DNA of 64,000 nt from Branchiostoma lanceolatum (taxonomy: Eukaryota). Below the pieces are notes generated by a model, which searched no databases, was not told the origin of the DNA, and saw nothing but the letters and a program-made list of their open reading frames with translations. The stretch lies in NCBI RefSeq assembly GCF_035083965.1, contig NC_089722.1, positions 25,355,081 through 25,419,080 on the forward strand, read 5' to 3'. The position numbers were made by a program, and so were the translations under genes. Below, piece by piece: positions 8,561 through 45,843 of the stretch. Within the stretch, counting starts at the first letter, position 1, and each line of letters starts with the position of its first letter.

Positions 8561-9030
8561 CTACCGTAAAATCCCTATTTACGTACGCACTTTTTAAACT
8601 TTTCAAGTTGCAAGCAGGTGTTCAAGGCTGACGCCAAAGTTGGGAGCATACGTTAGGAGGGGTTCTTCCTCGGAAAAATCGCATATCAGCGTGAGAGTAT
8701 GGTACATCTTAATGCAAATGAAGTGTGGAATGCTACCACACAATCAATCAGTAGTAAAGAATAAATAATACATATACACACTGTATTTAAATTGTTTGAT
8801 ATTTTCCACCCAGAAACATTTTGTCAGTAGGCTTTTAAGTCGGTAAACATCATCGAAAGGATGATCATGTCAACCTCTAACTATCCACAGAAATGCTGGA
8901 GAGGGGGTGCTTACGTTAAGAGGGTTTTTCCCCTGAACGTTTCAGCTCACTGAGTCAGGCCCGTAATCGTCCCCAAATCGGGGGTGCGTACGTTAGGAGG
9001 GCTGCGTACGTAAATAGGAATTTTACGGTA
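8561..9030. mobile_element. MITE (~470 bp) with ~27-bp TIRs taccgtaaaatccctatttacgtacgca, in NPHP3-like intron 6
   Basis: Left TIR 8562-8589, right TIR 9003-9029 (reverse complement matches with 1 mismatch). Internal subrepeats g(c/t)(a/g)tacgttaggagg occur three times. Confidence 0.6.
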
Positions 9031-10394: not shown

Positions 10395-10614
10395 GTGAGG
10401 CATTCTGGGATATCTAATGGTTCCCTGTTTGATGATGTTGAGGTAGCCTGATTAAATTATGCTTCAGGGGCACAACAGCACCAATCTCCAAAATAAAAGC
10501 CTCGGACTGCAGGAGTATGCATTATACAGAATACAGATCTTGAGGAGGTTTACCAGTTCTGCAAAACAAAACAAAAGATTGTGATCAGACTTTGATGCCT
10601 TCTCCCTTAACCAG

Positions 10615-28255: not shown

Positions 28256-29009
28256 GTGGGCTGAAAGGTTTCTAGGACTTAGAGAAGGAGATATGATACT
28301 CTATGAGCACCTATACAGAACGTAAGCATTGAAGGTCATGTTCGCGTATTTGAGGTTAATATCTGGTATATATAGGTTCATACAGTTGTGTCGAGAGACA
28401 TATCTTATACAACGACTGTAACTCTTATACAATGTTGACCAAAGAGGATGAAAAAGCTATGATAGGATAGCAGGATAGCTCATTACATTCTAGATACATA
28501 GCGTACTCCATGTGTGTTATCTTTTACCATTTGAATGTAATATGAAAACTATTGATGATGTAGGTGTAAGCACGCAGGATTTCAACCAGCCACGATAGAT
28601 TTATTCTAGGTAACCTTTTAGTGATAGATATAACATGATTTTTTATCTAAACAATTTAGTAGACATATTAGATTGTAATGCTATAACTATTGGTATAGGG
28701 AAGTGTATCATCGATCAGCCACTATTAGATAACTGTTGAAAGGGTAAAGAATCAAAGTACATTAAGTGTAATAAAATCAATGGTGATATGATGCAGAATC
28801 ACCCTTTGTCCCCATCCCAAAGGTTGTTTTACACAAGATCAGAGATGGTCATGTGAAATCAACTTAAGGTTAAAGGTTAGCAGACAGAGATAACAGAATA
28901 ACAAATACTCAAGACATTCAGTAACAGAATTTTGGTCATTATCAGATCAGCTAAATATTTACAGAGGTCTAATGTCATGTATGGAATGCTTTCATCTCTG
29001 AAATATGGT

Positions 29010-30108
29010 ATAACGTTGGGTAACCTAAATTCGGGATTTTTCCGATAATGGTTGACTGAAATCAATCTAGCAGAACAATAAACCATCCTTTTTTTCTATT
29101 ATTCTGTCAGTATCATGTACTATCTTTGCACTAATCATATATATGGTAGATTTTGTCTCTAGTCGTGCTGACACCATAATATTTCAACTTGAAACTACCG
29201 TGCGCCGCACGCACAATTGTGGTGCTGTCGGACAGGGGGGCACATTAATTCGGGAGAGAAGATTCGTCTTGAATATCTTACCGCTAATCACATTTTATAC
29301 AGCAGCTATTCGTTCTATCCTTGGCTTGAGGAGAGTGCTATGGATATAGACGTGTCCAAGTAAAAAAAATACACGAAGAAACGGCCGTACCGCACACATC
29401 AGGCCAGTTCGGGAACAACCCGTGTGTTGAGTCGGTAGAACTTCACTCAAAGTCGGCCCATCGTCATCATCGGGCAACGTGTAACGTTACATTATTCATG
29501 GGAAGTTAGCTGGATGCCGTAGCAATGGTAATACTACTATGTCCATGTGTTCCTTGTTGTGTTAGGAGCAAACTTTGAGGAAAATATCTTCCTCAGTCCA
29601 CTATCACACGCAGCATTTAGACAAAAAAGTGTTCCTCACAAACCTTTGTCGTCTGCTTGACAACAGGATTCTGGTTAACAATATGGCGGCGGGAAAATAC
29701 ACGTGCCGTAGGTTGTAGCAACAGAGAGGAGTTTTGATGATTGATCACACTTAGAATATAGTTGCAGGTTAGCAAAAGAGATTGTAATAAGTTGTCTTAT
29801 AAATAATTGTGTTTAGCAGGCAGGAGATGTGACATTTGTCTTATAAACCAGCGAACAACCGTGCTGGGTGATTCTCCCACGAAGCCCCCAGACTCTGTCA
29901 ATAAGGGACGGAGAGGTTTTGACGTCGCCAACTTCTAATGCATGGTTATCGAAGCTTTTCAGCCAGTGTTCTGAATACGTTAGTCTATCTGCTTTGCATT
30001 GCTGGCGTTATAACTGATTTTGCATGTAGCACATATCCCTAAATACCCCGTTTTCGAAAAATCCCGACTTTAAGTACCCCACGAATTTAGGTTACCCAAC
30101 GTTACATG
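29010..30108. mobile_element. DNA-transposon-like insertion (~1.1 kb) with ~35-bp TIRs taacgttgggtaacctaaattcgggatttttcc, in MVP intron 2
   Basis: Left TIR 29010-29044. Right TIR 30056-30106, the reverse complement with a 16-nt internal insertion. Confidence 0.5.
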
Positions 30109-30276
30109 ATATCATGGTTTACAGGTTTGTTAGCCAGAAAAAGCTTTTATACAGTTTTGGAGGCAGATATAGCCATCTCCCTGCTGCCTAACACTAAGTA
30201 ACCTTGTACAAATGGACTGAAATATCCTCAGCATGGAAAGGGTTAAAACGTTATCTAATCTATTACCCCCTTCCAG

Positions 30277-30399
30277 AATGTGACGCCCCTGAAAGTGGTC
30301 TCTGCGGACACTGCCCTGAGGCTGCGGGCAGTCCTGGACTTTGAAGACCAGACAGGACAGAAGAGAGTGGCCGGAGATGAATGGCTCTTTGAAGGACCA
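30277..30399 (+). CDS. MVP: MVP exon 3
   Basis: Translation [41 protein letters not shown](G). Compare human [41 protein letters not shown]. Confidence 0.9.
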
Positions 30400-30633
30400 G
30401 GTTAGATACTCAATATGCAATTATTTCATAGACTAGCTAGATGTTTTTATAATCATCCAAATCAAGGACTGGGATGAAGTTCTGAATAGTTGGCAGCCAT
30501 ACTTTCCAAACTGTATGTCGCTGATTCCTGCATGCAATTCAAAGATTAAGAATGCTTTGTTTTGATTTGTTTCTTACAGCAGATTTCTCCGGTTGCCACT
30601 ATGTCTTATGCTGCATTTCTTTCCTTTAAATAG

Positions 30634-30765
30634 GCACTTACATTCCAAGGAAGGAGGTTGTAGTTGACGAGACAGTCCGTGCGACCGTGATCTTGCCGAA
30701 CCAGGCCATCAAGCTGAGGGCGCGCAAGGAGACAGAAGACCGCGATGGCAACCACAGGGTCACAG
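30634..30765 (+). CDS. MVP: MVP exon 4
   Basis: Translation (G)[43 protein letters not shown](G). Compare human [44 protein letters not shown]. Confidence 0.9.
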
Positions 30766-30802
30766 GTGACATTGCAAACTCTGATTCTGATTTTTTGGTT
30801 AA

Positions 30803-30965
30803 GCATCTCAAGATTTATCTAAAACATCTCAAGATTTATTCAAAATGTCTCAAGATTTTTCTAAAACATCTCAAGATTTTTTTTAAACATCTCAACATAT
30901 TTCTAAAACATCTCAAGATTTATTCAAAACATCTTACAATTTTGCACAAAATCTCAAGATGTTTT
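30803..30965. repeat. minisatellite, ~21-22-bp unit catctcaagatttatctaaaa x ~7.5, in MVP intron 4
   Basis: Tandem imperfect copies are visible in sequence. Translated it gives the [19 protein letters not shown] repeat ORF artefact at 30687-30968. Confidence 0.85.
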
Positions 30966-31084
30966 TAATGAAGATTACTACTGGCAGTCATTCTCTATCA
31001 TTTCACAATATAAGCCATAACTCTGTTTATTCTGATTCTACTAAATAATGGTGCATGACACAATTTTGTTTTTTGTCCATTCAG

Positions 31085-31179
31085 GTGAAGAGTGGGTTGT
31101 GAAGAAGGTGGGAGCCTATCTGCCCGGTGCATATGAGGAGGTTGTGGACGTGGTGAACGCCTATGTCCTGACAGAAAAG
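31085..31179 (+). CDS. MVP: MVP exon 5
   Basis: Translation (G)[31 protein letters not shown]. Compare human [31 protein letters not shown]. Confidence 0.9.
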
Positions 31180-31469
31180 GTATCTTGAACAAACATTTTC
31201 TTCAAATTCTATTGTTGCATATAGACCAATCCCATGTACCTGCCTACATTATTCAAAATTTAGACTGCAATAGAAAATAAAAACAGAAGTATGCAAAAAA
31301 TGTGACATATGTGCAGCCACTTTCTTCTTGGTTAAACTTCAATTTTGATTGACAACTAGGATAAGTCCATTGCAATCTTATGGCAGATTTTTGTCAGTGC
31401 CTTCTTTCACTTAACTATAGCATTTTTAGAGCACTGCTGACCATGGGTGTATTCAAATGTGTGTTACAG

Positions 31470-31595
31470 AAAGCTCTGCACATGCGAGCGCTGCGGACCT
31501 TCAAGGACTTCAAGAACCAGACGAGGAAGAGCGGTGAGGAGTGGCTCATCACAATGGAGGACACCGAGACTCACATTCCGGATGTTTATGAGGAG
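31470..31595 (+). CDS. MVP: MVP exon 6
   Basis: Translation [42 protein letters not shown]. Compare human [42 protein letters not shown]. Confidence 0.9.
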
Positions 31596-31841
31596 GTATG
31601 AGAGCCGAAACACACCCTGTTATAACTGTAGTTGTAATGCATGATTGACAGCACAGGCCATATAAATATTAACACCTAAAGCTGCCTAAATCCAATACAA
31701 CTACCATAAGGCTAGTTTGGCAGAGAAAATGTTAAAAAGGCATTAGGAATTAGTAAAATGTAAAGATTTAGAGAATATGAGAATCAAGCTGATACACATG
31801 CACAGTACATCTAAATTTGAGTTTCCATGTTTACTTTCCAG

Positions 31842-31952
31842 GTTGTTGGAGTGATCAACATCACGACCCTGAGCAACCGCGAGTACGCCGTGATCGTGGA
31901 CCCTGTAGGGGAGGATGGGAAACCCCAGTTGGGCCAGCGGAAGCTCGTTAAG
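31842..31952 (+). CDS. MVP: MVP exon 7
   Basis: Translation [37 protein letters not shown]. Compare human [37 protein letters not shown]. Confidence 0.9.
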
Positions 31953-32272
31953 GTCAGTACTTTAAAAGTTTTATATCTTTGCCAGAAATGTGGATGTGTG
32001 TGATGAAAAGTTAGTGGCGTTGTCCAGTCCACATAGACAATATCTCACGTCAACCTCATATATCATTGAACCAGAATGCTAATTTTTTTTTGTCTTTCCA
32101 ACCAACATATTATTTCTGTGGTTTTTCACTAATATTGAACTCCTATCACTTGTATTGAACTGCTGTCAAAATAAAGATATTAATTCAAGGAAAACCAGAC
32201 AGTCTTGAATTGCGTCTTGAGGCCTTGCTATCAACTTGAAGGAAGTAAGAGAGATGTTGTGGTTTGTTTCAG

Positions 32273-32398
32273 GGGGAGAAGTCCTTCTTCCTGCAGCCAG
32301 GGGAGACCCTGGAGGACGGGATCCAGCCCATGTACATCTTGGAAGAGGACGAGGGACTCATCCTTAAGGCTAACGAAGCCTTTAAGGACATGGATGCT
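32273..32398 (+). CDS. MVP: MVP exon 8
   Basis: Translation [42 protein letters not shown]. Compare human [37 protein letters not shown]. Confidence 0.9.
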
Positions 32399-32593
32399 GT
32401 AAGAACATCACTTTTTTCTTTATTATATAGATAAAGAAATTATAGTCATTTCAATTTTTAGAGAACCAGAGTGCCCAAGGAGGTTTAGATAGGATTTAAA
32501 CCCCTTTGGAGTACATAAGGGCAAAGTCAGGCTTTCAGGTCAGCAATAGATGTTTTTCTGTGAGGTATTTCATAGCAGGTCTGTTTTGCTTAG

Positions 32594-32647
32594 ACTGACG
32601 ATGAGGAAGCTGATGAGGAAGTGTCGTCCAAACCAGCCGGCGCCCAG
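32594..32647 (+). CDS. MVP: MVP exon 9 (acidic micro-exon)
   Basis: tag|ACTGAC..cccag|gtaaca. Translation TDDEEADEEVSSKPAGAQ. Compare human EEGEDEEKVSHQAGD. Confidence 0.75.
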
Positions 32648-33323
32648 GTAACACCGGTGACTACAGCATCTGGATCTCTGTAGCTTTGCTTGAGTTTGTG
32701 GTGTTAGGGCATGAAAAAAGAAAAACTCATCATACTTGATTGGATTAGTGATGGCAAATGCAACTAATTCTGTTTGATTGCATACAGTGTGATTTCGGTT
32801 TGCCAAATGGTGCATGAACTACAAGGTAATTTTGTGGGTTTTGATTGCGTGGTATCGTATCTCTATTTATTTTGTTTTTGTTACGTCTTGTAAGCAAACT
32901 TTGTATGCTTCATTGATTTTCCCATGTTCTGCCATGAATAGATAACACTTATTAGTGAATTCTTTGGATTCAATCAGACCAATGCTGTTTTAAGGTCATC
33001 TATGATGAGAATGTACAATCTCCAAGTCTTATAGTCTATCAAAAGCTCAGAACTTGTAGATGTGTGTAGATTGCTGTGGGCTTAACTGTTAAAGTTTGTC
33101 CATGAATATTTGCTGTGACTGATAATCACTAACAGTGCAAATTGTTTTTACCCAAGCCATTCCATTAGTGCAGTTGCATGCCAGTCACTGCTTGTGATTC
33201 TTGTGCAATATCTATTAGCCTCCAACCCTGCACTTCTACTCTACTATCTATACTACTTTTGACATGCCGTCATCTATAATATATAAATCTATCATTGATC
33301 ACAAAATTAAATTTTCTTTGCAG

Positions 33324-33482
33324 CAGAAGGACGGAGTAGAGCGCAAACCTGGAGACCGCTGGATGATCCGCGGCCCTAAGGAGTATGTTCCGCCCGTGGA
33401 GGTTACCGTGGTGATGAAGAGGAAGGCCATTCCATTGGACGAGAACGAGGGTATCTACATCCGGAATATCAAAACTGGCAAG
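33324..33482 (+). CDS. MVP: MVP exon 10
   Basis: Translation [53 protein letters not shown]. Compare human [43 protein letters not shown]. Confidence 0.9.
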
Positions 33483-33774
33483 GTGAACAATTTGGTTCCA
33501 CATTTGCTTATTTGCTATCAACTGACCATTGACCCTTTTCCATTAACAAGGACTGAAACCAGTTCTTTTGGTAGGGATCTTTTAGTTCACATTCTTTGCA
33601 TTTGAACATTTTCAAGTTTTGTGGTCACACTGTGCAGTATAAGCAAAACTTTCCCCCCAAGAACTAAAAAGCTGAGTGTAAAATACACAAACAAATCTGC
33701 TATTCTGCATAGCAACTCTGTTGATTGTTTTGCATGTCTGAAGCACAGATAATGTATGACCTTTGACCTTGCAG

Positions 33775-33876
33775 GTCCGTGCGGTCTGCGGACAGACCTA
33801 CATGTTGGACCAGGATGAGGAGAGTTGGGCCAAACAGCTGCCGCCAGCCGTGGAGGCTCTCCTCACACAAAACTTG
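33775..33876 (+). CDS. MVP: MVP exon 11
   Basis: Translation [34 protein letters not shown]. Compare human [34 protein letters not shown]. Confidence 0.9.
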
Positions 33877-34910
33877 GTAGGTACATCTGCTGACTGGAAA
33901 ACCAGTCAAACTTGAGCAAAATGTTGGCAAAGAAACTGTATGACCAAAATATCAGGAACCCAAGTGTGGCAGGTCCTAAAATGTCTTGCGCAGAGAAAGC
34001 CAGATTTACCTGTAGTCAAGCATGTATTAGTACAGTGCTCATTCTTTGAGACAGGTAATAGATGGGGAAACAAAGGAATAAATGTTAGATTTACCTCAAT
34101 GCATCAGATCGCTCCACATAAGCTTAATCAAGATGATCAAAGATGCTAAAAAAATTTTCCAACACGGATAATGTACACTTCCGGCATCTGAAATTTTAAG
34201 TGATACTTATACTTAACTTGCATTAAAAAAGACGGTTTTTACTGTCATTAATCATATTACCTACCAACACAGGTGAGCTTATTCATTCTAATATCGGTCA
34301 AATTTATTCCTTTGTTTTGTAACCCCACTGTATAGGTACTAGACACAGGCAGACCTGCATTTGGGTCTATGATGAACATATGTCCTGATCTAGGGGAAAT
34401 TCAACAGGAAGTTCAACAACAGGTTCAAGTTCAAAAACAGCAGAGATCTCAGCCTCGCTACAGAGCTGCTGAAGTTGGCATGGCTGTGCAGGCCTACAGT
34501 AATGTTGGGAGTGTAAGTTAAGGCAAAGTAGAGAGCAACTTGCATGGGTGCAACTGAGAAATTACTGTAGCTTTCACTATGCATTTCTGGTTGTGTGATG
34601 TGTATGTGCTTAAACCTGGCATAGATGTGAATGCAAAAAAAGGCACAAATGCTTTTTTTCTTGCTTTAAACATATGCAATCTAAGCTTCAATGTTGCAAT
34701 TAAGCTATAGAGTTGTAGCTGTAGCTTAAGCTGAAGCTGCACAGCACTACTGTAACAGTTTTTGAAACTAGATACCAGGACTTTGGGGTATGCCAGACAT
34801 CTATTAGGCAATCTCCCATTTAGGGAATGAAAGCTACAGAATTCCTTTATTTAGTTGCCTTAGGAAAAGCTCTCTGAACTGTTCTGAATTTCACCTGTTT
34901 GCTTGTTTAG

Positions 34911-35047
34911 GATCCTCTTGCAGACCGAAGCGACCGTGGTACCCGCCCGCGTCCCGATCAGCCACGTGACAAAACCAAGGTCGTGACCTTCCGTGTGCCT
35001 CACAACGCTGCTGTCCAGATCTACGACTACAAGGAGAAGAAAGCAAG
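34911..35047 (+). CDS. MVP: MVP exon 12
   Basis: Translation [45 protein letters not shown](R). Compare human [48 protein letters not shown]. Confidence 0.9.
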
Positions 35048-35379
35048 GTATCTATGATATTGATATATGGTATCTTTATGTCTATAATATTATGATCTTG
35101 ATTTTTACTGTGGAATTTCTCAAGAAGTAAAACCAAACTAGCAAATTACTAGTGGAAGACAGTGACACAAACTTTCATGTAGTATCGACGTGTGCATGAT
35201 GTCTAAGATATCTGTTGGGCAGATTTAAATTCCTGATTCTGAGTCATACAGAATTTTTCTTTTGCAGTTGCAGTTCATATCTCCATGTTTGATATTCCTT
35301 GATAGGTCAATAAGTTGAATAGAATCTCTGGGTTACAATCAGTGACCAATACTGACCATGGATTGCTGACTATATTTCA

Positions 35380-35578
35380 GGGTTGTGTTTGGTCCGGAAC
35401 TGGTGCTGCTCGGTCCTGATGAACAGTTCACCCAGCTCAGTCTGTCTGGGGGGAAGCCCAAACGACCCAACGTCATCAAGTCCCTGTGCCTGCTCCTCGG
35501 GCCTGACTTCTGCACCGACATCATCGTCATAGAGACGGCTGATCATGCCCGTCTGCAGCTGCAGATGAGCTACAACTG
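35380..35578 (+). CDS. MVP: MVP exon 13
   Basis: Translation [65 protein letters not shown](W). Compare human [66 protein letters not shown]. Donor aactg|gtaggt. Confidence 0.9.
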
Positions 35579-35767
35579 GTAGGTGATTTGTGACCTGTTC
35601 CTCCCTTATATCAAATGGAACCTTCTAAATCCCACTATCTACCTGCTCCAACTAACTAGCAAATATATCATTGGTCTCATACCAGTGTTACCATATTTTC
35701 CTGCCTACAGCCTAGCTTACTATAACTTATTGGTCTCACATCAGTGTTCTTTTCTTGTGACCTCCAG

Positions 35768-35906
35768 GCACTTTGATGTCAAGGACAAGGAGAAAGATGG
35801 CAAGAAAATTTTCAGCGTCCCAGACTTTGTCGGCGATGCCTGCAAGGCTGTTGCCTCCCGTGTCCGTGGCGCTGTTGCTGGCGTTCAGTTTGATGATTTC
35901 CACAAG
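35768..35906 (+). CDS. MVP: MVP exon 14
   Basis: Translation [46 protein letters not shown]. Compare human [48 protein letters not shown]. Confidence 0.9.
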
Positions 35907-36176
35907 GTGAGGTCATTTTCGTGTTAGTGGAAAAGGAAACATGGTGAAAGTTTGTGGTGAAACAAATACATGTAATACTTAATATATGAGTTTGTGATGA
36001 GATTTCAAAATACTGCAGTCTTAAAACCACTGTGACTGTTTCACGATTTACAGTACCCGGTAGTGTTCTGAAGGTTCTAACATTATGGAGCATATTATTC
36101 ACTCTTGTAATCTCCTCAAGTACAACTTTCATAACAATCAGGATTGTAACCTCAGTGAATCAAATTGTAATTCCAG

Positions 36177-36241
36177 AACTCGGCTCGAATCATCAGGGCA
36201 TCAGTATTTGGTCTGGATGAGAGCAACAAGGTTCGCAATGT
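36177..36241 (+). CDS. MVP: MVP exon 15
   Basis: Translation NSARIIRASVFGLDESNKVRN(V). Compare human NSARIIRTAVFGFETSE. Donor aatgt|gtgagt. Confidence 0.85.
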
Positions 36242-36269
36242 GTGAGTACCCTTTTCTTTCACTTTTCTA

Positions 36270-36380
36270 ATTTGTGTACTTTTGGATGGGACATAAAGTC
36301 GGGTCCTGTGTTTGAGGATGTGCCTCGAGTATGGTAAAGGGGGAGGGCTAGCAACCCGTCTCTATAGAAATATACCCTGG
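36270..36380 (+). mobile_element. tRNA-derived SINE fragment (family A body, motif gtgcctcgagta), in MVP intron 15
   Basis: gaggatgtgcctcgagtatggtaaaggggg matches gaggaggtgcctcgagtacgttaaaaaagg at 57058-57090. Confidence 0.4.
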
Positions 36381-36579
36381 CTCTGAAACAGCAAGGAAAC
36401 TTGCTACTAGGCACTGCAAGCTCTGAATCAGCAAACCGATCAGCGATATATGTATCAAGGGTACAACAAAAGCTATGGGGTAATTTTGGATAGTCAATGC
36501 ATAAAGGAGTGTTACAGTTCCAAATTCCCCTTTGAATATCCTGCTGATAATCACTGAACATTGCCCTCTGTCTGTACAG

Positions 36580-36843
36580 TTTCACGTTCCCCCAGAACAA
36601 CCTTGTGATCACCAGCGTGGACATCCAGTCCGTGGAGCCCGTGGACCAGCGCACACGAGACTCCCTGCAGAAGTCCGTCACGCTCGCCATCGAGATCACC
36701 ACCAACTCACAGGAGGCGGCGGCCAGGCACGAGGCGGAGCGCGTGGAGCAGGAGGCCAAAGGTCGCCTGGAGCGGCAGAAGATTCAGGACGAGGCAGAGG
36801 CGGAGAATTCACGTCGAGACCTGCTGGAACTGCAGGCTAAGAG
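36580..36843 (+). CDS. MVP: MVP exon 16 (shoulder / coiled-coil start)
   Basis: Translation (V)[87 protein letters not shown]. Compare human [86 protein letters not shown]. Confidence 0.9.
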
Positions 36844-37405
36844 GTGTGCACTCTTCTGACTGAAATTGTGGAGTTAAACCATCTTCCACCCGTCATGATC
36901 AATTCAAGTGACCCATAGTAGAACTATTCCTGTTGTCTGCATGCTCGTCAATGACATTTGCTTTCTTGATATATTCTGACTGCCAAGAGATGTGCACTCT
37001 TCCTGTAGCATGAAAGCTCTTCAGTGTTCATGATTGAAAATGTGGAATAAAAACTGCCATGCATTTAACATTTCGACTTATGTTCCTAAATGGGCTACAG
37101 AAGACTTTTTTGTCCAGTGAAATAAAAGCTTCTTATTGAAATGAGCAACGGTGATCAAAGATCTCAAGAAATGCAAACCAAATTATATACATCTACCAAG
37201 TTGTTACTGATTTGTAGGATTTGTATTTCCATGCACATTTTTCCTGACTTTAGACTGTTCTGGATCAAATTATGGTAGAAGGCATCCTTCCATCTCGAGA
37301 TGATGGTAGCACTCTGGTGTCATGGCCATGGGCAGTGTCTTGTGTTGCTGGTCAGTCCTATCCTAGTTCTAACAGCGATGATATTGTGTTTCCTTCCTTC
37401 TTTAG

Positions 37406-37532
37406 TGCTGCGGTGGAGAGCACCGGACAAGCCAAAGCAGAGGCCCAGTCTCGCGCCGAGGCAGCCAGGATCGAAGGCGAGGCGGCGGTTGAGCAGGCAA
37501 AACTCAAGGCACAGGCCTCCAAGATTGAAGCT
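37406..37532 (+). CDS. MVP: MVP exon 17 (coiled coil)
   Basis: Translation (S)[42 protein letters not shown]. Compare human [42 protein letters not shown]. Confidence 0.9.
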
Positions 37533-37959
37533 GTAGGTTTTCATTACTTAGGTCACTTAAAATTGATTGTGTGGATGACATCTGTTGTGTCTGTGAAAAT
37601 ATCATGTTTCAGTGGTCATTTGATATGGACTAATTTTCTGAGAACTAAATATCAACAATGACTCAGTGTTTGTGTCTTTATAACTCTACAAATGCCTGAC
37701 TCATCATAAGTAGATGCTCATCATTGTCAATTACTTAATCTGTATATCCATGAAAAAAAGTTTTTTCTTCCAAACATGTTGAATGACTGGAAAATAGAAA
37801 TGTTAAGAGTCACAAAGGTAACATACATACAAAGGTAGCAAACATGTATTGTACCTATATCATTTTATACCATTTGATGATACTGTGTCCAAAAATAAGT
37901 ATTAAAAAAAGTATCAGCCTAGTGGGTGTACTAAACTTGACCACATCTTGATTTTGTAG

Positions 37960-38148
37960 GAATCTGAGCTTGAGCGCCTGTCGACAGCGCGCGAGGCCGA
38001 GTTGAAGTACTTGCGGGAACAGAACGACATGGAAGTGGCGAAGCTAAGGGAAATGGCCGAAATTGAGACGACGAAGTTCAAGAACCAGGTGGACGCCATC
38101 GGCGCCCAGACTATCCAGTCTATCGCCCTGGCCGGTCCTGAGCTACAG
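37960..38148 (+). CDS. MVP: MVP exon 18 (coiled coil)
   Basis: Translation ESELERLSTAREAELKYLREQNDMEVAKLREMAEIETTKFKNQVDAIGAQTIQSIALAGPELQ. Compare human ..[30 protein letters not shown]. Confidence 0.9.
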
Positions 38149-38501
38149 GTCAGGGTTTTTCATGTGCTTCTTTGTTTTGTTATGTTTTTCTTTGTTTCAC
38201 AAGAAACACCTAATGCCCTATCAAAATCTATGACCATCTACACAGCACGTCACCAGAATGTAAGCATTTAAGGTCGTGTTTGCGTATTCAAGGTTAACAT
38301 CTCGCATATAGGTTCATTTAGTTGTGTCCAAAGACATATCTTATGCAACGGCTGTTACTCCGATGCAACGTTGACCAAAGAGAACAAAAGAAATTTAGCA
38401 GTTATGATAGGTTTAAATAGCAGACTAATTGCCATATATGCATTACGTTCTGAATACATGCTCATGTACTGTCTTTAAACATGTTCTTTACCCATCCACA
38501 G

Positions 38502-38666
38502 GTCAAACTACTGAAGGGCCTGGGCCTGACCTCTACCCTGATCACAGATGGTACTTCTCCCATCAACCTCTTCAACACTGCAGGGGGTCTGATCGGGGCC
38601 ATGGGCGGGGCAGCCAGTGGCCATCCTGCTCGTTCCCGCCGCCACTCCGATTCCTCGGAAGACTAG
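38502..38666 (+). CDS. MVP: MVP terminal exon (stop TAG 38664-38666)
   Basis: Translation [54 protein letters not shown]. Compare human [32 protein letters not shown]. Confidence 0.9.
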
Positions 38667-40165
38667 AAAGCTCAATGCAACCCCTCTTAAAGTAGTTTTA
38701 TAAGACCAGTGCGTGTAGTGCTGCAGACCCCAGAAATGACAACTGGATAGAATAGACTTGAGAGTAAATATTACTTTCATAAAGAATTTCTAAAAATCGG
38801 TCTACTTCAAGTGGTGATAATGGAAAGCAAACATTAAACATCCTGACCAATATGGCTGCAATCCCTACCTGTGGGGTAAGGGAGGAGATAAAACTATGTT
38901 TGAAGTGCTACTTACACAACTCAACATATACAATGCAAATGCTGGGCTCGGGAGTTGCCAAAGAGAGGGAAAGGGGCTAAAAGAAAAACTTACTAAAACC
39001 ACAAGAGAGACCTTTGCCATGTTTTTTTCACTCCCTGTTACAAGTCCCTAATAGACTTTGGGTTTGTACCTTTCACATGAATACGACAGCTTTATTTTGA
39101 CCACCAAAGAGACTTAATGCATGCAAGAAAACGTCTATGTTCAGATGATGAAAATTACTGAAGATACTGTTCTTTGTTGATGGTGAAAATTTGTGAAAAC
39201 AAAAACTATGAAAAGCAAAAATATGCACTATTCTGGCTGACATTGTGTTGTTGATATTCTATTACGATTAGGTGGATTATGGTTCTCTAGAATTAGGAAA
39301 TGTAAAGATGAAGGTTTGATGAAAAGACAAGTTTACTATTGCTGGCTACTGCTCTATAAATGTTTATCTCTTGTATGATAAAAACACTACAAATGATATG
39401 ATAGTTTTGAAGAAGCAGATTCTATAAGAAACAGCTTATGACATGGTGTCCAAGTCTTGAGATTAGAATTATAGGACATTTATGGTATCACTGCTACAGA
39501 TATAGTTTTGGAAGCTACTATGCCTTACTTCTTTGTGTAATTATAATATTCCTCCGTGGTGTTAGCTGTTAGCTGTAGAGACTACATTTTGTACTTTTTG
39601 GTGGGACTGATTTTCGTCACTTTTGCCAGTCATACTTTTTGTGCTGTTGGATCATTATGATTACAATTCTGTTTTCTGTATATCTTGAAAATATAACTTC
39701 ACAAAAGTGTAGCAACTTGTCTTGGTGACAATAATCCTTATAAACATTGACCGAATAAAACCTTGGTTTAGTTGGATCGATAAACATATAGTTATGTAGA
39801 AAAATATGAATAATTGCACACAACAAAATATGACCCACTAGATAAAGACGTTACTTACAGAAGGCATTTTATGTTGTGACAAAACAAAATGGCCTCAAAT
39901 GCTGTGTTTTGACATAGCTGAAGATTTTGGAACTCTTCATGAATTTTAGGATATGTTCTCAGAAATTGTTTATCATATTAGATATGCATCGTAACGTCAT
40001 AATGCTATAATTCTGTCATGACAATTTATCACAGTCAGTGGCAACCACAGCCTTGATATTTCACCAGCTCTCGTCTTGGTCAAGTGAGTCTTCTGAGAGT
40101 TTTGGGAGTTCAACAGCCCCTTTCAGTCTCAGCAGCTCCGGAGTCGTGGGTCCTAGTAGCAGAGG

Positions 40166-40338
40166 TGTGTTCGGGTCTAACGAGATGGAGCTTCGCGGTG
40201 AAGCGAACGGGCCAGCGACAAGGCCCTTCCCGCCAAAGGCATGGCCACTTGGTGTGTTCGGATCTAAGGAGATGGAGCCTCGCGGTGAAGCGAACGGGGC
40301 AGCAACAAGGCCCTTCCCGCCAAAAGCATGGTCACTTG
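40166..40338. repeat. tandem duplication, 86-87-bp unit x2 (~90% identical)
   Basis: Unit gtgttcgg(g/a)tcta(a/c)(c/g)gagatggag(c)ctcgcggtgaagcgaacggg..caaggcccttcccgccaaa(g/a)gcatgg(c/t)cacttg. Open on both strands (the + ORFs at 40038-40355 and 40084-40371, and a Met-less - frame). Confidence 0.85.
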
Positions 40339-40531
40339 CTGATCTGCATGCATAGGAAAGATGTAACGTAGTTGGGACCTTTGAATGGTTTATTATTTAA
40401 CTATTCAACAGAACAAAATGTATACATAGTGCATACATTCAAGATGGTGCAGAAACGGAAATTTGTTATGTGGATTCGACTTCTTCCCGTTCCTTTTTTA
40501 ATGATGGAAATATAGGTTCAGATATCTAGTT

Positions 40532-40855
40532 TTATGGCAAGATGATAATGATATCATATCTACACGCATAAGAAGCATAAACTTTGCGTTTGAAACAAGA
40601 CAGCGTTTGTACGTACCCTTCATCTTGTTCTTCGACGATTGCGGCCACCCCTGGAGCGATGGAAGACCGTCTGCGAGACCTCCTTCGCGCCCTGTTCATT
40701 CTCTGTATCTCTTCTATGGCAGAGATAGGGAGATCCTCGTCGTCGTCTTCCATCACTGTGATCGTAGGAGTGGTATGATGTGAAATTATTTCCGCCCGTT
40801 TTAATAGATGGATAGAGGAGGTTCGTTTTGAAATCGTGCATCCCATTTTGATCAC
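40532..40855 (-). CDS. small N-myristoylation-motif protein X1 (candidate first exon; conserved GTACGT donor would end it at 40617)
   Basis: ORF MIKMGCTISKRTSS...RARRRSRRRSSIAPGVAAIVEEQDEGYVQTL..; MGCTISK fits the MGxxxS/T N-myristoylation consensus. Paralogous to the 44325-44531 ORF (RRxS..PG....(D/E)4-6Y motif). Donor-like gaagg|gtacgt sits at the same codon position in both. Confidence 0.4.
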   Translation of the reverse strand: MIKMGCTISKRTSSIHLLKRAEIISHHTTPTITVMEDDDEDLPISAIEEIQRMNRARRRSRRRSSIAPGVAAIVEEQDEGYVQTLSCFKRKVYASYACRYDIIIILP

Positions 40856-43800
40856 GTGTCGGCGAGAGCTTTGTGGACAAGTCTGTCCATGTTAAATCTT
40901 GAAGACAAGAGTCCGTTTTCTTCCGGGAACGTTGTGCCCTCAGTGCTTGTTTTGAGATGTTCGTTATGCTTTGACCAAGGGTACCAAGCGACGATCTACA
41001 CTATGTCGTCATATCCATTTGTGACGTTGAGATGTTCGGAAAAAATCTCCAAGCAGATGTTGGAAGGACGTTTGTATAACAAACACAGAACCGAAAAACT
41101 TTACGATTTTGCCTTCCAGCATGCTTGAAAAAACGTGGGCCGTTGATTGAAAATCAGTGTCTGACAAATATTTGTTGGAAACTTCTTTTCGATAAATGTT
41201 TCCTTATCTTTTATCGCAATAGATAGATTGAAATGTCACTTTCCTATATGTCCTTAGCAGGTAGCGGTTCATTAATGTGTTGATTTTTACACAGACGACA
41301 TTGAAAGTACAATGTAAAAGAATTGGGAAAATCTTTCAGATATCAATGGCTGATGACTCAACCACTTTGCTCATTCTACTACTGCTAGAGACCATGTCGT
41401 CTTGCTGAAAAATTCCTCGATTATTTGGTCTCAAAACTGAAATGATAAACCATGGATTTTCGCAGTATATGCAGTGCGCCTGTTATGAGCTATCAAAGGG
41501 CCCCACTGTAGAGCAATAGTCACAACACTGGGTTGGGCTACCCCAGATAAAAGCTTATACAGTAACTTGAAAGGCACGCATAAAACCAAATAAACAAGTT
41601 GTTACGTCAATGTACCAATTTAAATCCGTAGTTGCCGTTGCAGTTTTGCAGTGCGGGAGATGTCTATATGGTTGTGCTTGGCAAAGCCTGTGAAAATAAA
41701 AGGTATGGGCATGGTGCACTATTTACATAAGCAATTGGCCAATTGTTTGCATCACGCTTTACAATGTTGTAGAGAATATAGCGTTCTACGGTAACCCACG
41801 GGGCAGTTGTTCTTGGGGTCAGTTGAGGACACTGGGGTCACCTCCGGTCAACGGAGGGCCACCGGAGTGACTGAGCATATATCTTATGACGTTTCCATTT
41901 TCAGTTCTATGACGTTCAGAGTTACCAGTCTGAGAACACAAATAAGCGTGCACAAACTTAGCCAGGTCCTCTCCACACCCCGATTGAACGACGATGTTAT
42001 TCCGGTAAGAACTGAATTTGTTTGTCTTCTGTTACGTTACATGTAACGTTAACATTTATAAACCGTTGTTAGGAATAGAATTACATGAGAACTTTGATAT
42101 AGTGTTGACTCCACAGCCGGCTGATTCTTCCTCGAAACTTTCTGACTCTGACATGTGAAATTCAAATTCATGAGATTCAACTGATATTCATTCAACCTAT
42201 ATAGTTATAGGTTATATGGGGTAGAAACTGAAGAAATCTTATGTACATAATAGACAGCATCCAGAACAGGTACATTTGTAACGCAAATTAAATTTTCCGA
42301 AGTAGCAATGGCCCTGATGCAAGAACATGTATTAGATATTATGTCATTGACAGGAATTCACATTTCTGATCAAAAAGCTAGGCACAAGCCAAAACAGAGG
42401 ATTTCGTGCGTTTTATTGATTTCATCAAACAGAAAATATGTCACCCCACACCAAACACATTGACTACCATCAGGGCCGATGAACGATGGCGGGTGCCTTT
42501 TGAAAGCTTCTAACCACAGCTTCTATTTGTCGTGCGTAGCCAGTTCGAATGTTCATATTGAAACAGGAAGCAAGCGATCTCTTTGTGTTTAGTTGAAGGC
42601 TAGAAAGTATGTACCAGTACTGTCGCTGTGGTCTGGGAAAGTCCATGACAATGTCCCACCTTAATGAGAAATAAAGTGTTCTCCAACTCAAAAAGCTTCA
42701 CTCGCCGGAATTTTCGACCGAATCTTCATCAGCTATCTGGCCCAAGTGCTGTAGACACGGTGAAACTTTTTGAGTTCGAGAACGGTTTATTTCTCATTAT
42801 GTAGTTACCAACTCAGATCAACTTTCATGCGAATGTCCCACCTGTGAATAATGTGAAATTCTGAGAATTTCGCTTCCGACATTACTACCCTCTCTATTTA
42901 ACGATTTCCGAAATCCCTTCATAAACGGGCAAATAATATATGGGGGGATTCCTTCAAGGAGTCGTCGTTGATTTGATGCTGATATTTTCATTCGAATTTT
43001 GTATACGTAACCAGCCAACCTGTGGATGGATCGTGTTTGGGGCAATAAAAATATTATGATTTCCAGGTTTTTAGTCGGACGCATTCCTTGAATGAAGCCA
43101 GGACACTATATAAGTAAAGAATGAACAGAAGATGTGGATGTGAGTCGAAGATTAATGACATTTACTGGTGTTCAAGTAATCCACATGCCAACAAGATGCC
43201 AACACAAACAAGGTGTTCAAAATTCAATCAAATTACTGGGATTGACTTCATTTTTCGGGTTTTCCTTTTTAACTGTTCTTACTACTTTATAATTACATGC
43301 ACTGATCTATTGACTTCTTGATATTGTACTGTATGTACAAAGTAGGATGCAACTATTCAAGACGACTAATTCCGCTGAAAAGTGTCAGTTTGCCTCTAGA
43401 TCTCGTTCGGTATAACACATAGATATCCAACAGTACAACTGTTCGACGTTGTATCATTCTCAGCTTATCGATATCAATATTGAATATTGAGTGGACAGTG
43501 GCGGTGTCATTGTAGCGCTTAAAAATATCTGATATTCACTGATGAATATTACGTAGTGTAAATCATAACTTTGGGACTTTGTGTATCAAGGGCACTGAGA
43601 AAATTCCATGATGAGAGCATTACAGAACACAGACAGTGTCTATCCAGTTGCAGTGGAACGGTACAGTTTTCCTCCCTATGTCTTTTCTGATGATCTAGAT
43701 CGTGGGCTGCCTAGTTTGTTGCTGTGATCAGATGATCTGCTCTGGGCGGAGGCATCCACATCTTCCCTGTCAGCGATGTTCGCACTCTCCGTTGAGCCAA

Positions 43801-43999
43801 AGACCCAGTTGCCTGCTTCTCTGTGAGACAAAAGGCGACACGTTCGGTTACGATGGTACCTCTATTCAACATGATATGAGGTGGGTCCTTGATGCGTGTT
43901 TCCCTTCATCTTTTTAACAAGATATCTCCAGCTTAACCTCCCCTCTGAAGGACACTAAGTCTACCCACTACCGTACCAACGGATTGCAAATTGGGGTTC

Positions 44000-44135
44000 G
44001 GAACAATAACGGTAGGTTAGGATTTGAACCCGCAACCCCATGGTCCAGAAGTGGGGCTACTGAACACCAGACCGCTAGAGGATACTATTGTACATAACAG
44101 ATGTATGAAACACTGCCTAGTGCTTTGGCCAGTAC
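44000..44135 (-). mobile_element. tRNA-derived SINE fragment (T-arm-like ggggttgcgggttcaaatcc on the - strand)
   Basis: The reverse complement of ggatttgaacccgcaacccc gives a tRNA T-arm-like motif. No complete cloverleaf can be drawn. Confidence 0.35.
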
Positions 44136-44324
44136 AGACGACGGAAGAGCCTGAATGGTATTTCTTTGCCTTTCCTATTGTGGTGAACATAATTCCATCA
44201 TACGAGTAACGGGCTCCCTGTTACTACCAAGTCCAGAGCGGTCCACATGCCTCCCATGCCAGCCCAGACCTTTGTGTATTTGAGGCAGGAGTAGAAGTAG
44301 GAACGCCAAGTAGCCCCATACATG

Positions 44325-44531
44325 TTATACATGACATGGCAAAACTACGTACTCTTCATCAGGATCGTCTCGAATTGTATCCAGTCCCGGCACCATCGAC
44401 GCTCTCCGGGCCGTCCGTCTGGGCAGGCTGCGCCGAACCTCTTCTGGTGTACTAGAGGGACTGATTTTGTGGGGTTGCTTCTTTCCTTGCTTCTTCTCTT
44501 TCTTTTTACTCTTTGACGGGAAAGAACCCAT
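44325..44531 (-). CDS. small N-myristoylation-motif basic protein X2 (candidate first exon; conserved GTACGT donor would end it at 44353)
   Basis: ORF MGSFPSKSKKKEKKQGKKQPHKISPSSTPEEVRRSLPRRTARRASMVPGLDTIRDDPDEEYVVL.. has Gly2, Ser6 and a polybasic stretch (Src-SH4-like myristoyl switch). Paralogous to X1. Confidence 0.4.
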   Translation of the reverse strand: MGSFPSKSKKKEKKQGKKQPHKISPSSTPEEVRRSLPRRTARRASMVPGLDTIRDDPDEEYVVLPCHV

Positions 44532-45843
44532 GTTTTAAACACTATTGGTGCAGTTAAGTGTTTGTCCTTTGTTTTGTTTGATTGTGACGTCATAAACGCT
44601 TTTCCACAGTCACAGAAACGTCATAACTGTTTCCGAGCAACATGCAACGAACATGGAGAAGCCGCAACATTTTAGTCATCTCTTTATGTCCGATTGTCAG
44701 AAACTTTTTAATGCTCTTACAAAGTGCTCAGGGGCTCGTGTACCATACGTCATACGTCTCATGCTCGGCAGTTCGTGTTGACATTCAAAATTTCTTTTTA
44801 CTTCTGTCAATACGGCCTCCGTGATGTTTTCGTATTCCAACTAAAGCCATGCTGATTTCATTATATGGATGACATCCGCACGGCCATCAATTTTTGTCCG
44901 TTTCAAAAAAAAATTGGGCCATACTATAAATCATACAAAGCAGTTGGAAAATTAGCAAGTTTATACCGTAAATTGCACACAAAGTATTTCCAAGAATGGG
45001 TACATTTGTACTATAATAATGCCGTAGAATGCCAAGGCCAATTCCAAAATCAAAGAAGATGTGAAAGAACAAAAATGAAAAATGTATTATTTGATATACC
45101 ATACTCTGTGTGTTTAGTCGCTTGTTCAACCTTGATCATGACCACGTAGATTTTATAATGATGACAACTTTTTTTGCCATACTTTTTTTATACGCACGCT
45201 CGCATCAGTTTTAGAGTTCCCACTGGGTGTCATCCATGTAATCAAATCAACATGGCCTAAGTTATGCCAATCTTAATTTCATGCAAATTTATTCTGGAAC
45301 AACTAGACAACCTCACAACAGCTAAGTATCATTATCTTGACATGTTCTAGAACAACGTTTTTCGTCGACTTTGCCGTCGACGAATAAGAGGAATGAGCGC
45401 CCACAACATCATTGCAATCATGATTATCTATAATTACCCAAAAGCAAACATACACAGACGCTTGTGTAACGAAGAAAAAGTTAGTCAAGGACTTCAATGT
45501 CCCATTCCTGTTATAATGCTCGTTCGTTTGCTGTCTAGACCTACTAAGATAGATGACCAGCTTTGGTCAGAAGCTCCTGGCGACTTGTACCTGCACTGCA
45601 CGTATATCAAATGCAGTCACCTTTACGAATTCCAATGGTAACTCTGATCACTCATCAGGTGATGACACCAGGTGCTCAGTCTCCGCATCACAAGGATTGG
45701 TTTTCACGTCTTGTGGGCAGTGCATGGTGCAGCCGACATAGCCGTAGATTTCCTCAACAGTTTACCTATCCGCCCCCACCTCACGACAAGAACTTCTCGC
45801 TACGGTATACCGTTCAACCGTCGTGCCATTTCCTCACCCAGCT

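Follow-up and report, generated by a model that had tools for sequence, protein, structure and literature searches.

We analyzed a 64-kb stretch of DNA from the amphioxus Branchiostoma lanceolatum (contig NC_089722.1), here called the window, which carries two small genes, A and B, on its minus strand. The window has a GC content of about 41% and holds no long open reading frames (ORFs), which marks it as eukaryotic DNA. We found that it is 93 to 99% identical to BraLan3 chromosome OV696686.1, which indicates that it is another B. lanceolatum haplotype than BraLan3. An earlier note on the window had pointed to two minus-strand ORFs, at 40532-40855 and 44325-44531, as the start of a pair of related genes for small lipid-anchored proteins. 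Both ORFs are present. The first is listed from an upstream GTG, with the ATG of its MGCTISK start at 40846, and the second begins with MGSFPSK at 44531. Our comparisons of A and B take in four haplotypes or species, namely, the window, the B. lanceolatum reference, Branchiostoma floridae, and Branchiostoma belcheri; the two genes from these four sources make up the eight sequences referred to below.

We found that each ORF opens a coding sequence (CDS) of two exons. The gene A CDS (40846-40617 joined to 40343-40061, minus strand) encodes 170 amino acids (aa), and the gene B CDS (44531-44353 joined to 43820-43676, minus strand) encodes 107 aa. The acceptor of gene A, ...ctttcctatgcatgcag/A at 40344/40343, leads into a frame that stays open for 94 codons, up to a TGA ending at 40061. 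In gene B, the acceptor is ...ttttgtctcacag/A at 43821/43820, and the frame is open to a TAG ending at 43676. The proposal that the two ORFs are homologous first exons spliced to downstream exons was thus borne out, in that good acceptors open in-frame second exons and the spliced products reproduce annotated Branchiostoma proteins.

Gene A is already in the databases as an uncharacterized protein. Its exon 1 corresponds to the first exon of Hypp450 in B. lanceolatum, LOC118425507 in B. floridae, and Bbelb_146150 in B. belcheri, and its spliced product matches the same three uncharacterized proteins over their full length (E = 1.7e-87 for Hypp450). RNA-seq assemblies underlie the BraLan3 annotation (PMC9673378), and as gene A is part of this annotation, they provide indirect transcript support for the gene. 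Outside a 29-aa insertion, our model and Hypp450 are 96% identical. The insertion comes from an in-frame 87-bp tandem duplication in exon 2, which gives the product a second AFGGKGLVA.PFASPR.SISLDPNTP unit. None of the other three gene A sequences has the duplication, which therefore looks like a coding-length polymorphism specific to the window haplotype. Its copies differ by 8%, which suggests that it is not very recent.

The records for gene B are sparser. The only matches that we found for the spliced product are B. belcheri Bbelb_146140 (KAI8507234.1 / XP_019621159.1) and a record of identical sequence that comes from a hybrid of B. floridae and B. belcheri. By tblastn, intact gene B exons lie in the B. 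lanceolatum reference (locus L002, 6278-6457 and 7013-7153) and in B. floridae (locus L003, 4105-4284 and 4981-5097). No gene B protein record was found for either species, and neither locus has a gene call there among the gene calls examined. For B. lanceolatum and B. floridae, gene B therefore makes a small addition to the annotation. The coordinates of both genes and of the other features are collected in Table 1.

Table 1. Positions of genes A and B and of nearby features in the window
Feature	Positions	Strand	Details
Gene A coding exon 1	40617..40846	-	MGCTISK...RRRSRRRSSIAPGVAAIVEEQDE + 2 nt of Gly codon; ATG at 40846, final exon base 40617
Gene A intron	40344..40616	-	273 nt, phase 2, GTACGT...TGCAG
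Gene A coding exon 2, including TGA stop	40061..40343	-	SASDHAFGGKGLVA.PFASPR.SISLDPNTP ... LSEDSLDQDESW*
In-frame 87-bp tandem duplication, gene A exon 2	40164..40338	-	2.0 copies, 92% match; adds 29 aa
Upstream ORF (uORF) in gene A leader	40852..40890	-	12 codons (MDRLVHKALADT*), stops 5 nt before main ATG
Conserved upstream element, gene A	41006..41028	-	AACGTCACAAA-N3-ATATGACGA, cyclic AMP (cAMP) response element (CRE)/ATF-half-site-like; invariant in four-sequence alignment
Plus-strand exon between A and B	41781..42004	+	conserved; 5' limit is the extent of cross-species alignment only; donor CCG/GTAAGA, intron GT at 42005-42006; L002 about 8840-8960, L001 12261-12508
Gene B coding exon 2, including TAG stop	43676..43820	-	EAGNWVFGSTESANIAD...SPRSRSSEKT*
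Gene B intron	43821..44352	-	532 nt, phase 2, GTACGT...CACAG
Gene B coding exon 1	44353..44531	-	MGSFPSKSKKKEKKQGKKQ...RRTARRASMVPGLDTIRDDPDE + 2 nt of Glu codon; ATG at 44531, final exon base 44353
Palindromic TGACGTCA, full CRE consensus	44585..44592	-	about 55 nt upstream of gene B ATG, within block TTTATGACGTCACAAT

Evidence that genes A and B are paralogs sharing an intron

When the peptide of each ORF was searched against the whole window by tblastn, the other ORF was returned (E = 3e-5 to 6e-5; 42.5% identity over 40 aa). The two genes share a block with 39 to 42% identity over 40 to 46 aa; as the earlier note had described, the block contains an RRxS and a PG motif, and we found both motifs in all eight sequences. 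The Smith-Waterman score of A against B was 75. Shuffled sequences scored 30 ± 5.5 and at most 68, and none of 20,000 reached 75, with global and block-wise shuffling alike. Self-blastn of 39900-44700 against the window returned only the internal 87-bp tandem duplication, and within the 64 kb we found no further copy of the A/B motif or loci. From the tblastn, self-blastn, and shuffle tests, we concluded that the similarity between A and B is real, single-copy, and not compositional.

The similarity runs on into the second exons. The spliced proteins match each other with a pairwise E of 2e-7, and their alignment crosses the splice junction (...QDEG/SASDHAFGG versus ...PDEE/EAGNWVFG, with DEG/SASDHAFG facing DEE/EAGNWVFG). 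Continuity across the junction is evidence for the splicing that does not depend on the donor sequence. The C-terminal halves of the two proteins are unrelated.

Each gene has one phase-2 intron, at a homologous codon in A and B. We found that both genes keep the GT donor and AG acceptor, and that the intron stays in phase 2 at an unchanged position, in all four haplotypes and species; intron length ranges among these from 136 to 671 nt in gene A and from 501 to 696 nt in gene B. A shared GTACGT donor, which had been taken as a mark of homology, is indeed found in both genes of the window at the homologous position (GG/GTACGT at 40617 and GA/GTACGT at 44353), but the hexamer itself is not conserved. 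In gene A, the hexamer after the junction is GTACGT in the window, GTACGC in the B. lanceolatum reference and B. floridae, and GTGCGA in B. belcheri. In gene B, it is GTACGT in the window and GTAGGT in the other three. Since the hexamer differs across species and haplotypes, the identical GTACGT in A and B is a coincidence of the window haplotype, and only the GT, with its position and phase, is conserved. The same donor disposes of an acidic-cluster tyrosine (EEY / YxxL) that had been proposed for both proteins: with this donor the TAC codon is intronic, and the Tyr is in neither protein.

Genes A and B are conserved as coding sequences in three species

In each of the three species, gene B is intact and gene A corresponds to an annotated protein. 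The coding length differences in A and B are all in frame. Between species, the ratio of nonsynonymous to synonymous substitution rates (dN/dS) was 0.22 to 0.37 for gene A and 0.27 to 0.56 for gene B; purifying selection on the sequences is real but moderate, focused on the N terminus and the shared core. We also found that the exons of both genes align with B. belcheri, where the gene A intron is not alignable and much of the flanking sequence does not align either. As a side observation, B. belcheri differs from the other two species in these genes by a synonymous divergence of only about 0.33 to 0.6.

These data bear on whether the ORFs are translated at all. If they were chance ORFs, noncoding transcripts, propagated annotation artifacts, or repeat fragments, it would be no surprise that they have no Pfam domain and no homolog beyond one genus, or that the B. 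lanceolatum and B. floridae gene calls examined lack gene B. However, ORFs, splice sites, phase, and in-frame indels have been kept in three species, with dN/dS of 0.22 to 0.56, and it is the exons that align with B. belcheri where the gene A intron and much of the flank do not. The loci are also single-copy in the window and correspond to two protein clusters in 1.84 billion, which does not describe a dispersed repeat. We consider it very improbable that the ORFs are untranslated.

The earlier note had itself allowed that the motif might belong to a repeat element with many copies. We rejected a transposable or dispersed repeat: the only repeated part of either locus in the 64-kb window is the internal 87-bp duplication, neither gene has a second copy there, and only two protein clusters were found among the 1.84 billion. 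In-frame splice models that match annotated proteins, conserved splice sites, in-frame indels, dN/dS below 1, and synteny argue that these are real two-exon genes. Taken together, the comparisons support homologous first exons of tandemly duplicated two-exon genes that appear to be restricted to amphioxus.

The family is confined to Branchiostoma as far as sequence methods reach

We found no family in a Pfam-A scan of the spliced A and B proteins at E ≤ 10, and a sequence profile search of the PDB at E ≤ 10 returned chance matches only (SnoL, riboflavin synthase, and LHC). A hidden Markov model (HMM) profile of the A and B orthologs, run against 1.84 billion representative proteins, returned the A cluster, the B cluster, and three repeat-inflated artifacts only. 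A profile of the core alone, run against 5.8 billion proteins at E ≤ 10, returned four Branchiostoma proteins and nothing else. Consistently with the suggestion that this is an unrecognized, lineage-specific tandem duplicate, we found a conserved pair in three species and nothing credible outside Branchiostoma in the two protein searches. The family therefore appears to be confined to this genus as far as sequence methods reach, with the caveat that detectable similarity decays fast in short disordered proteins.

The three artifacts were rejected as homologs. P0005 and P0006 are Gly-rich repeat proteins of a bacterial type. P0007, a 2,154-aa product of an ENA metagenome contig, owes its E value to the summing of about 10 repeats of ERRGSVTPDVLEQIRRLS, at 5 to 8 bits each. 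It is an unrelated, eukaryote-like protein, and its repeat ...SERRGSVTPDVLEQIRRLS... has the spacing of the A/B core, R-R-x-S-Phi-x-P-x-Phi-x-x-I (Phi, a hydrophobic residue), which is not evidence of homology. We also scored sequences of known proteins against the family profile and took none of the scores as evidence of homology: the CREB KID (RRPSY...APGVPRIEEEKSEEE) gave 12 bits, with an E of about 0.2 to 0.8 at proteome scale, PKA-RII linkers gave 4 bits or less, KIF4A gave 1.8 bits, and no match was reported for PKI.

A and B combine an N-terminal lipidation signature with a basic-acidic core

We modeled gene A with AlphaFold2 from the family alignment. The mean predicted local distance difference test score (pLDDT) was 52.6 and the predicted template modeling score (pTM) was 0.14, with only two short helices, at residues 11 to 22 and 43 to 57. 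Both proteins are thus predicted to be essentially disordered and to bear short linear motifs. In gene A numbering, the residues invariant across paralogs and species are M1, G2, S6, K7, S42, E45, E46, R49, R56, R59, R60, S62, P65, G66, I70, E76, A79, F84, and G85; R55 is conserved save for a Lys in B. floridae gene B. Outside the shared part, the gene A product has the unit described above and a C-terminal end of LSEDSLD.DE.W.

The rules for N-myristoyltransferase (NMT) substrates are established, and Ser6 and Lys7 are favored. All eight sequences begin with MGxxxSK, which fits the PROSITE PS00008-type pattern (G-{EDRKHPFYW}-x(2)-[STAGCN]-{P}) at Gly2. The Gly2 consensus with Ser6 that had been read from the two ORFs therefore holds throughout the family, with Lys7 in addition. 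Position 3 separates the paralogs: gene A has Cys3 in all four sequences (MGCTISK), and gene B has Ser3. A polybasic N-terminal stretch had been ascribed to both proteins. It is found in gene B, which has a Lys cluster at residues 7 to 19 and a net charge over residues 2 to 21 of +7 in B. lanceolatum, +6 in B. floridae, and +4 in B. belcheri. In gene A, the net charge over the same residues is only +2 to +3. Nor does the description as basic proteins apply to both. Gene A is acidic overall (pI 5.0 to 5.7), and gene B is basic in B. lanceolatum (pI 9.75) and B. floridae (9.1) but not in B. belcheri (5.4).

Within the shared core, all eight sequences carry an extended site, R-x-x-R-R-x-S, with I, M, V, or A as the next residue; it reads RSRRRSSI in A and RTARRAS[MVA] in B. 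The established consensus of protein kinase A (PKA) is R-R-x-S/T-hydrophobic, and an Arg at P-6 is favorable. The site would fit PKA best: Arg occupies P-6, P-3, and P-2, and P+1 is hydrophobic. Akt, RSK, and S6K were rejected as a poor fit, as they need an Arg at P-5. The site is followed by PG-[VL]-x-x-I-x-[DE][DE]-x-[DE]-E and then by A-x-x-x-x-FG, which spans the exon junction; PG-xxx-I-x-[DE][DE]-x-[DE]-E is found in eight of the eight sequences.

Conserved sequences upstream of both genes

We found that the ATG, frame, and stop of the uORF in the gene A leader are kept in all four sequences and that its stop overlaps an invariant CACGTG E-box. On the assumption that the uORF lies inside the transcript, it may exert translational control of gene A if the transcription start site is upstream of it. 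The putative promoters of genes A and B have a ACGTCACAA core in common (minus strand, 41006-41028 and 44575-44600). The palindromic TGACGTCA upstream of gene B is only partly conserved: the B. lanceolatum reference has the identical sequence, whereas B. floridae has TTACGTCA and B. belcheri has TGAGATCA. The CRE-like elements upstream of A and B may, to judge from their sequences, be regulatory sites of the ATF/CREB type. Two further ACGTCA half-sites lie in a conserved block at 41880-41920.

A model of A and B as membrane-tethered adaptors

We lean toward the view that A and B are short, largely disordered, membrane-tethered, phosphorylation-switched adaptor proteins, encoded by tandem amphioxus-restricted genes. 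According to this model, the initiator Met would be removed and Gly2 would be N-myristoylated cotranslationally. Membrane binding would be stabilized in gene A by palmitoylation of the invariant Cys3, as in the MGC type of Lck, Fyn, and G-alpha-i, and in gene B by the Lys-rich cluster at residues 7 to 19, as in the Src/MARCKS type. At the membrane, a basophilic AGC kinase, most likely PKA, would phosphorylate the invariant Ser (Ser62 in A and Ser45 in B), which is preceded by Arg at P-7/P-6 and at P-3/P-2 and followed by a mostly hydrophobic P+1 residue. Because this Ser lies in a basic patch directly upstream of the hydrophobic-acidic motif, its phosphorylation would alter local charge and binding. 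The switch in the charge of the basic patch would change partner binding to the adjacent PG-[VL]-x-x-I-x-[DE][DE]-x-[DE]-E...A...FG, the electrostatic contact with the membrane, or both.

On the N-terminal motifs, A and B are probably lipid anchored, and a "myristoylated, phosphoregulated adaptor," as the earlier note put it, would fit every conserved feature. We infer from these features the lipidation, the kinase, and the existence of a partner, as well as the steps that follow membrane tethering. Several points weigh against the model. Lipidation and phosphorylation of A and B are consensus-based predictions. R-R-x-S is not exclusive to PKA; PKG, Aurora, PAK, and further basophilic kinases use it too. 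The P+1 residue is Ala in B. belcheri gene B. Selection has constrained the genes only moderately overall (dN/dS of up to 0.56), and in their C-terminal halves A and B are unrelated. Finally, the Pfam, PDB, and profile searches found no homolog of known function on which the model could be anchored.

The arrangement of the kinase site raises another possibility. A and B would be decoy substrates that capture the catalytic subunit of PKA at the membrane, acting from a lipid anchor but otherwise in the manner of the RII inhibitor site, PKI, the SMO PKI motif, and ARHGAP36. Arg at P-6, P-3, and P-2 is invariant between the paralogs, with Phi at P+1, and RTARRASM of gene B resembles RTGRRNAI of PKI. 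An N-terminal helix is one of the hallmarks of PKI and SMO (10.1101/2021.07.05.451193). The predicted helix of gene A at residues 43 to 57 ends just N-terminal of the site, but its confidence is low (pLDDT 50 to 67). CRE-like elements upstream of both genes would suit a cAMP feedback loop. In contrast, the P site of PKI-type pseudosubstrates is nonphosphorylatable, and in SMO an A-to-S change there abolishes function (10.1101/2021.07.05.451193), whereas all eight A and B sequences have Ser at the P site. Neither paralog has the conserved aromatic residue at P-11 or P-13 (Asn51 and Arg49, respectively, in A; Arg and Val in B), and we found no similarity to PKI or the PKA regulatory subunit in the PDB sequence search or with the family profile (RII, 4 bits or less; PKI, not reported). 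We regard such a decoy as quite unlikely.

The motif that follows the site may point to a different partner, the B56 form of protein phosphatase 2A (PP2A-B56). A and B would then be membrane-anchored recruiters, in which the basic patch, a Phi-x-x-I-x-[ED] motif, and acidic residues dock B56 and the embedded Ser tunes binding. In the bipartite mode of B56 binding, a basic patch lies within about 15 residues N-terminal of LxxIxE, which is then followed by acidic residues (PMC7108865). The layout of A and B matches this mode, with a basic patch (RRRSRRR / RRTARR) 4 to 5 residues upstream of the motif, and the Ile at motif position 4 and a downstream Glu are invariant in all sequences. However, set against the consensus [LMFI]-x-x-[ILV]-x-E then acidic, neither paralog is canonical. 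Gene A, with VAAI[VA]E(E), has Val at position 1, and gene B, with LDTI[RQ]D(D), has Asp at position 6 instead of the defining Glu. Short acidic-hydrophobic motifs are common in disordered proteins, and the reading has no statistical support, with KIF4A scoring 1.8 bits against the family profile. Docking of B56 is an unlikely function as well.

Both partners can be drawn into one scheme, in which cephalochordate-specific, lipid-anchored decoys or docking proteins capture the PKA catalytic subunit and/or PP2A-B56 at the membrane and, with their CRE promoters, form a lineage-restricted cAMP feedback module. Such a module would resemble PKI, the SMO PKI motif, and ARHGAP36 by analogy and would have arisen independently of them. 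We hold out little expectation for this scheme.

Likeness of A and B to known membrane-anchored proteins

Judged by sequence features, A and B seem alike in kind to MARCKS, BASP1, the Src N-terminal region, and smAKAP, but they are members of none of these families. Gene A shares with the N termini of Lck/Fyn and G-alpha-i/o the Met-Gly-Cys, Ser6, and Lys7 of the myristoylation and Cys3 palmitoylation signature, in three species. The likeness is limited to the first seven residues, however, and gene A has no kinase, Src homology (SH), or GTPase domain or homology. Gene B shares with MARCKS, MARCKSL1, BASP1/NAP-22, and the Src N terminus a Gly2, a Lys-rich segment at residues 7 to 19, a basic patch with a Ser for a basophilic kinase, and predicted disorder, and with these it could make an electrostatic, phosphorylation-switched membrane contact. 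It differs from MARCKS and BASP1 in that no Pfam match is found at E ≤ 10 and in that its phosphosite, which fits PKA and not PKC, lies ~25 residues from the Lys cluster; it is also far smaller than MARCKS.

Like A and B, smAKAP / C2orf88 and AKAP18-alpha are small (about 100 aa), N-terminally acylated, and tied to plasma-membrane PKA signaling. They bind PKA regulatory subunits through an amphipathic helix, whereas A and B carry a substrate-type site and have no Pfam match. PKI, the PKA-RII linker, SMO, and ARHGAP36 resemble A and B in Arg at P-6, P-3, and P-2, in a hydrophobic P+1, in the predicted helix N-terminal of the site in A, and, for SMO, in the predicted membrane location. The differences are the P-site Ser of A and B, which is of the substrate type, the missing aromatic residue at P-11/P-13, and the lack of detectable homology. 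The PP2A-B56 ligands KIF4A, RepoMan, and AIM1 likewise have a basic patch upstream of Phi-x-x-I-x-acidic, an acidic run, and a disordered region. With Val at position 1 and Asp at position 6, respectively, A and B differ from these ligands in falling short of the strict consensus, and binding of B56 by A or B is hypothetical.

Genes A and B make up a clean taxonomically restricted ("orphan") amphioxus family, in which two paralogs, an intron, and short linear motifs predate the split of three Branchiostoma species. It is established that membrane anchoring follows a "myristate plus second signal" rule, and the pair, with the same myristoylation signal and different second signals (Cys3 versus a Lys cluster), is a natural experiment for this rule. 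If either the PKA or the PP2A-B56 reading were true, amphioxus would have evolved, independently, a membrane-tethered regulator of a core signaling enzyme. Tandem duplicates are reportedly especially common in amphioxus (PMC9673378). In this light, we consider the pair a genuine but fairly ordinary lineage-specific family with a putative signaling function and modest immediate significance.

Gene order and neighboring features

We found the same gene order in three of three Branchiostoma loci: an LDLa/trypsin-domain gene on the opposite strand, gene B, gene A, and a convergent major vault protein (MVP) gene. In B. belcheri, genes B and A have the adjacent locus tags Bbelb_146140 and Bbelb_146150. 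The plus-strand exon between A and B belongs to the LDLa/trypsin-domain gene, and gene B therefore lies antisense inside the first intron of that gene. In the B. lanceolatum annotation, the CDS of the LDLa/trypsin gene begins in the equivalent of this exon, with an ATG at 8856 of L002. This ATG is TTG in the window haplotype (41984-41986) and CTG in B. belcheri, which suggests that the exon is probably 5' untranslated region and that the reference start codon is doubtful.

The MVP gene occupies about 29000-38670 of the plus strand and converges on gene A; the last of its coding exons ends near 38665. Its exons align at 83 to 92% with B. belcheri and B. floridae. The MVP label (Vault repeats and MVP shoulder domains) is taken from the annotation of the orthologous loci.

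The gene B intron contains a tRNA-like T-arm (GGGTTCAAATCC) at about 44010-44090 of the window, minus strand (L001, about 10440-10530). No second copy of this segment was found in the window, and tRNA (ARAGORN) and Rfam scans of 39 to 46 kb called nothing, including at the T-arm. For the intron segment around GGGTTCAAATCC, B. lanceolatum and B. belcheri can be aligned at about 68%, and this segment may be an old remnant of a tRNA-derived short interspersed nuclear element (SINE) or a conserved intronic element.

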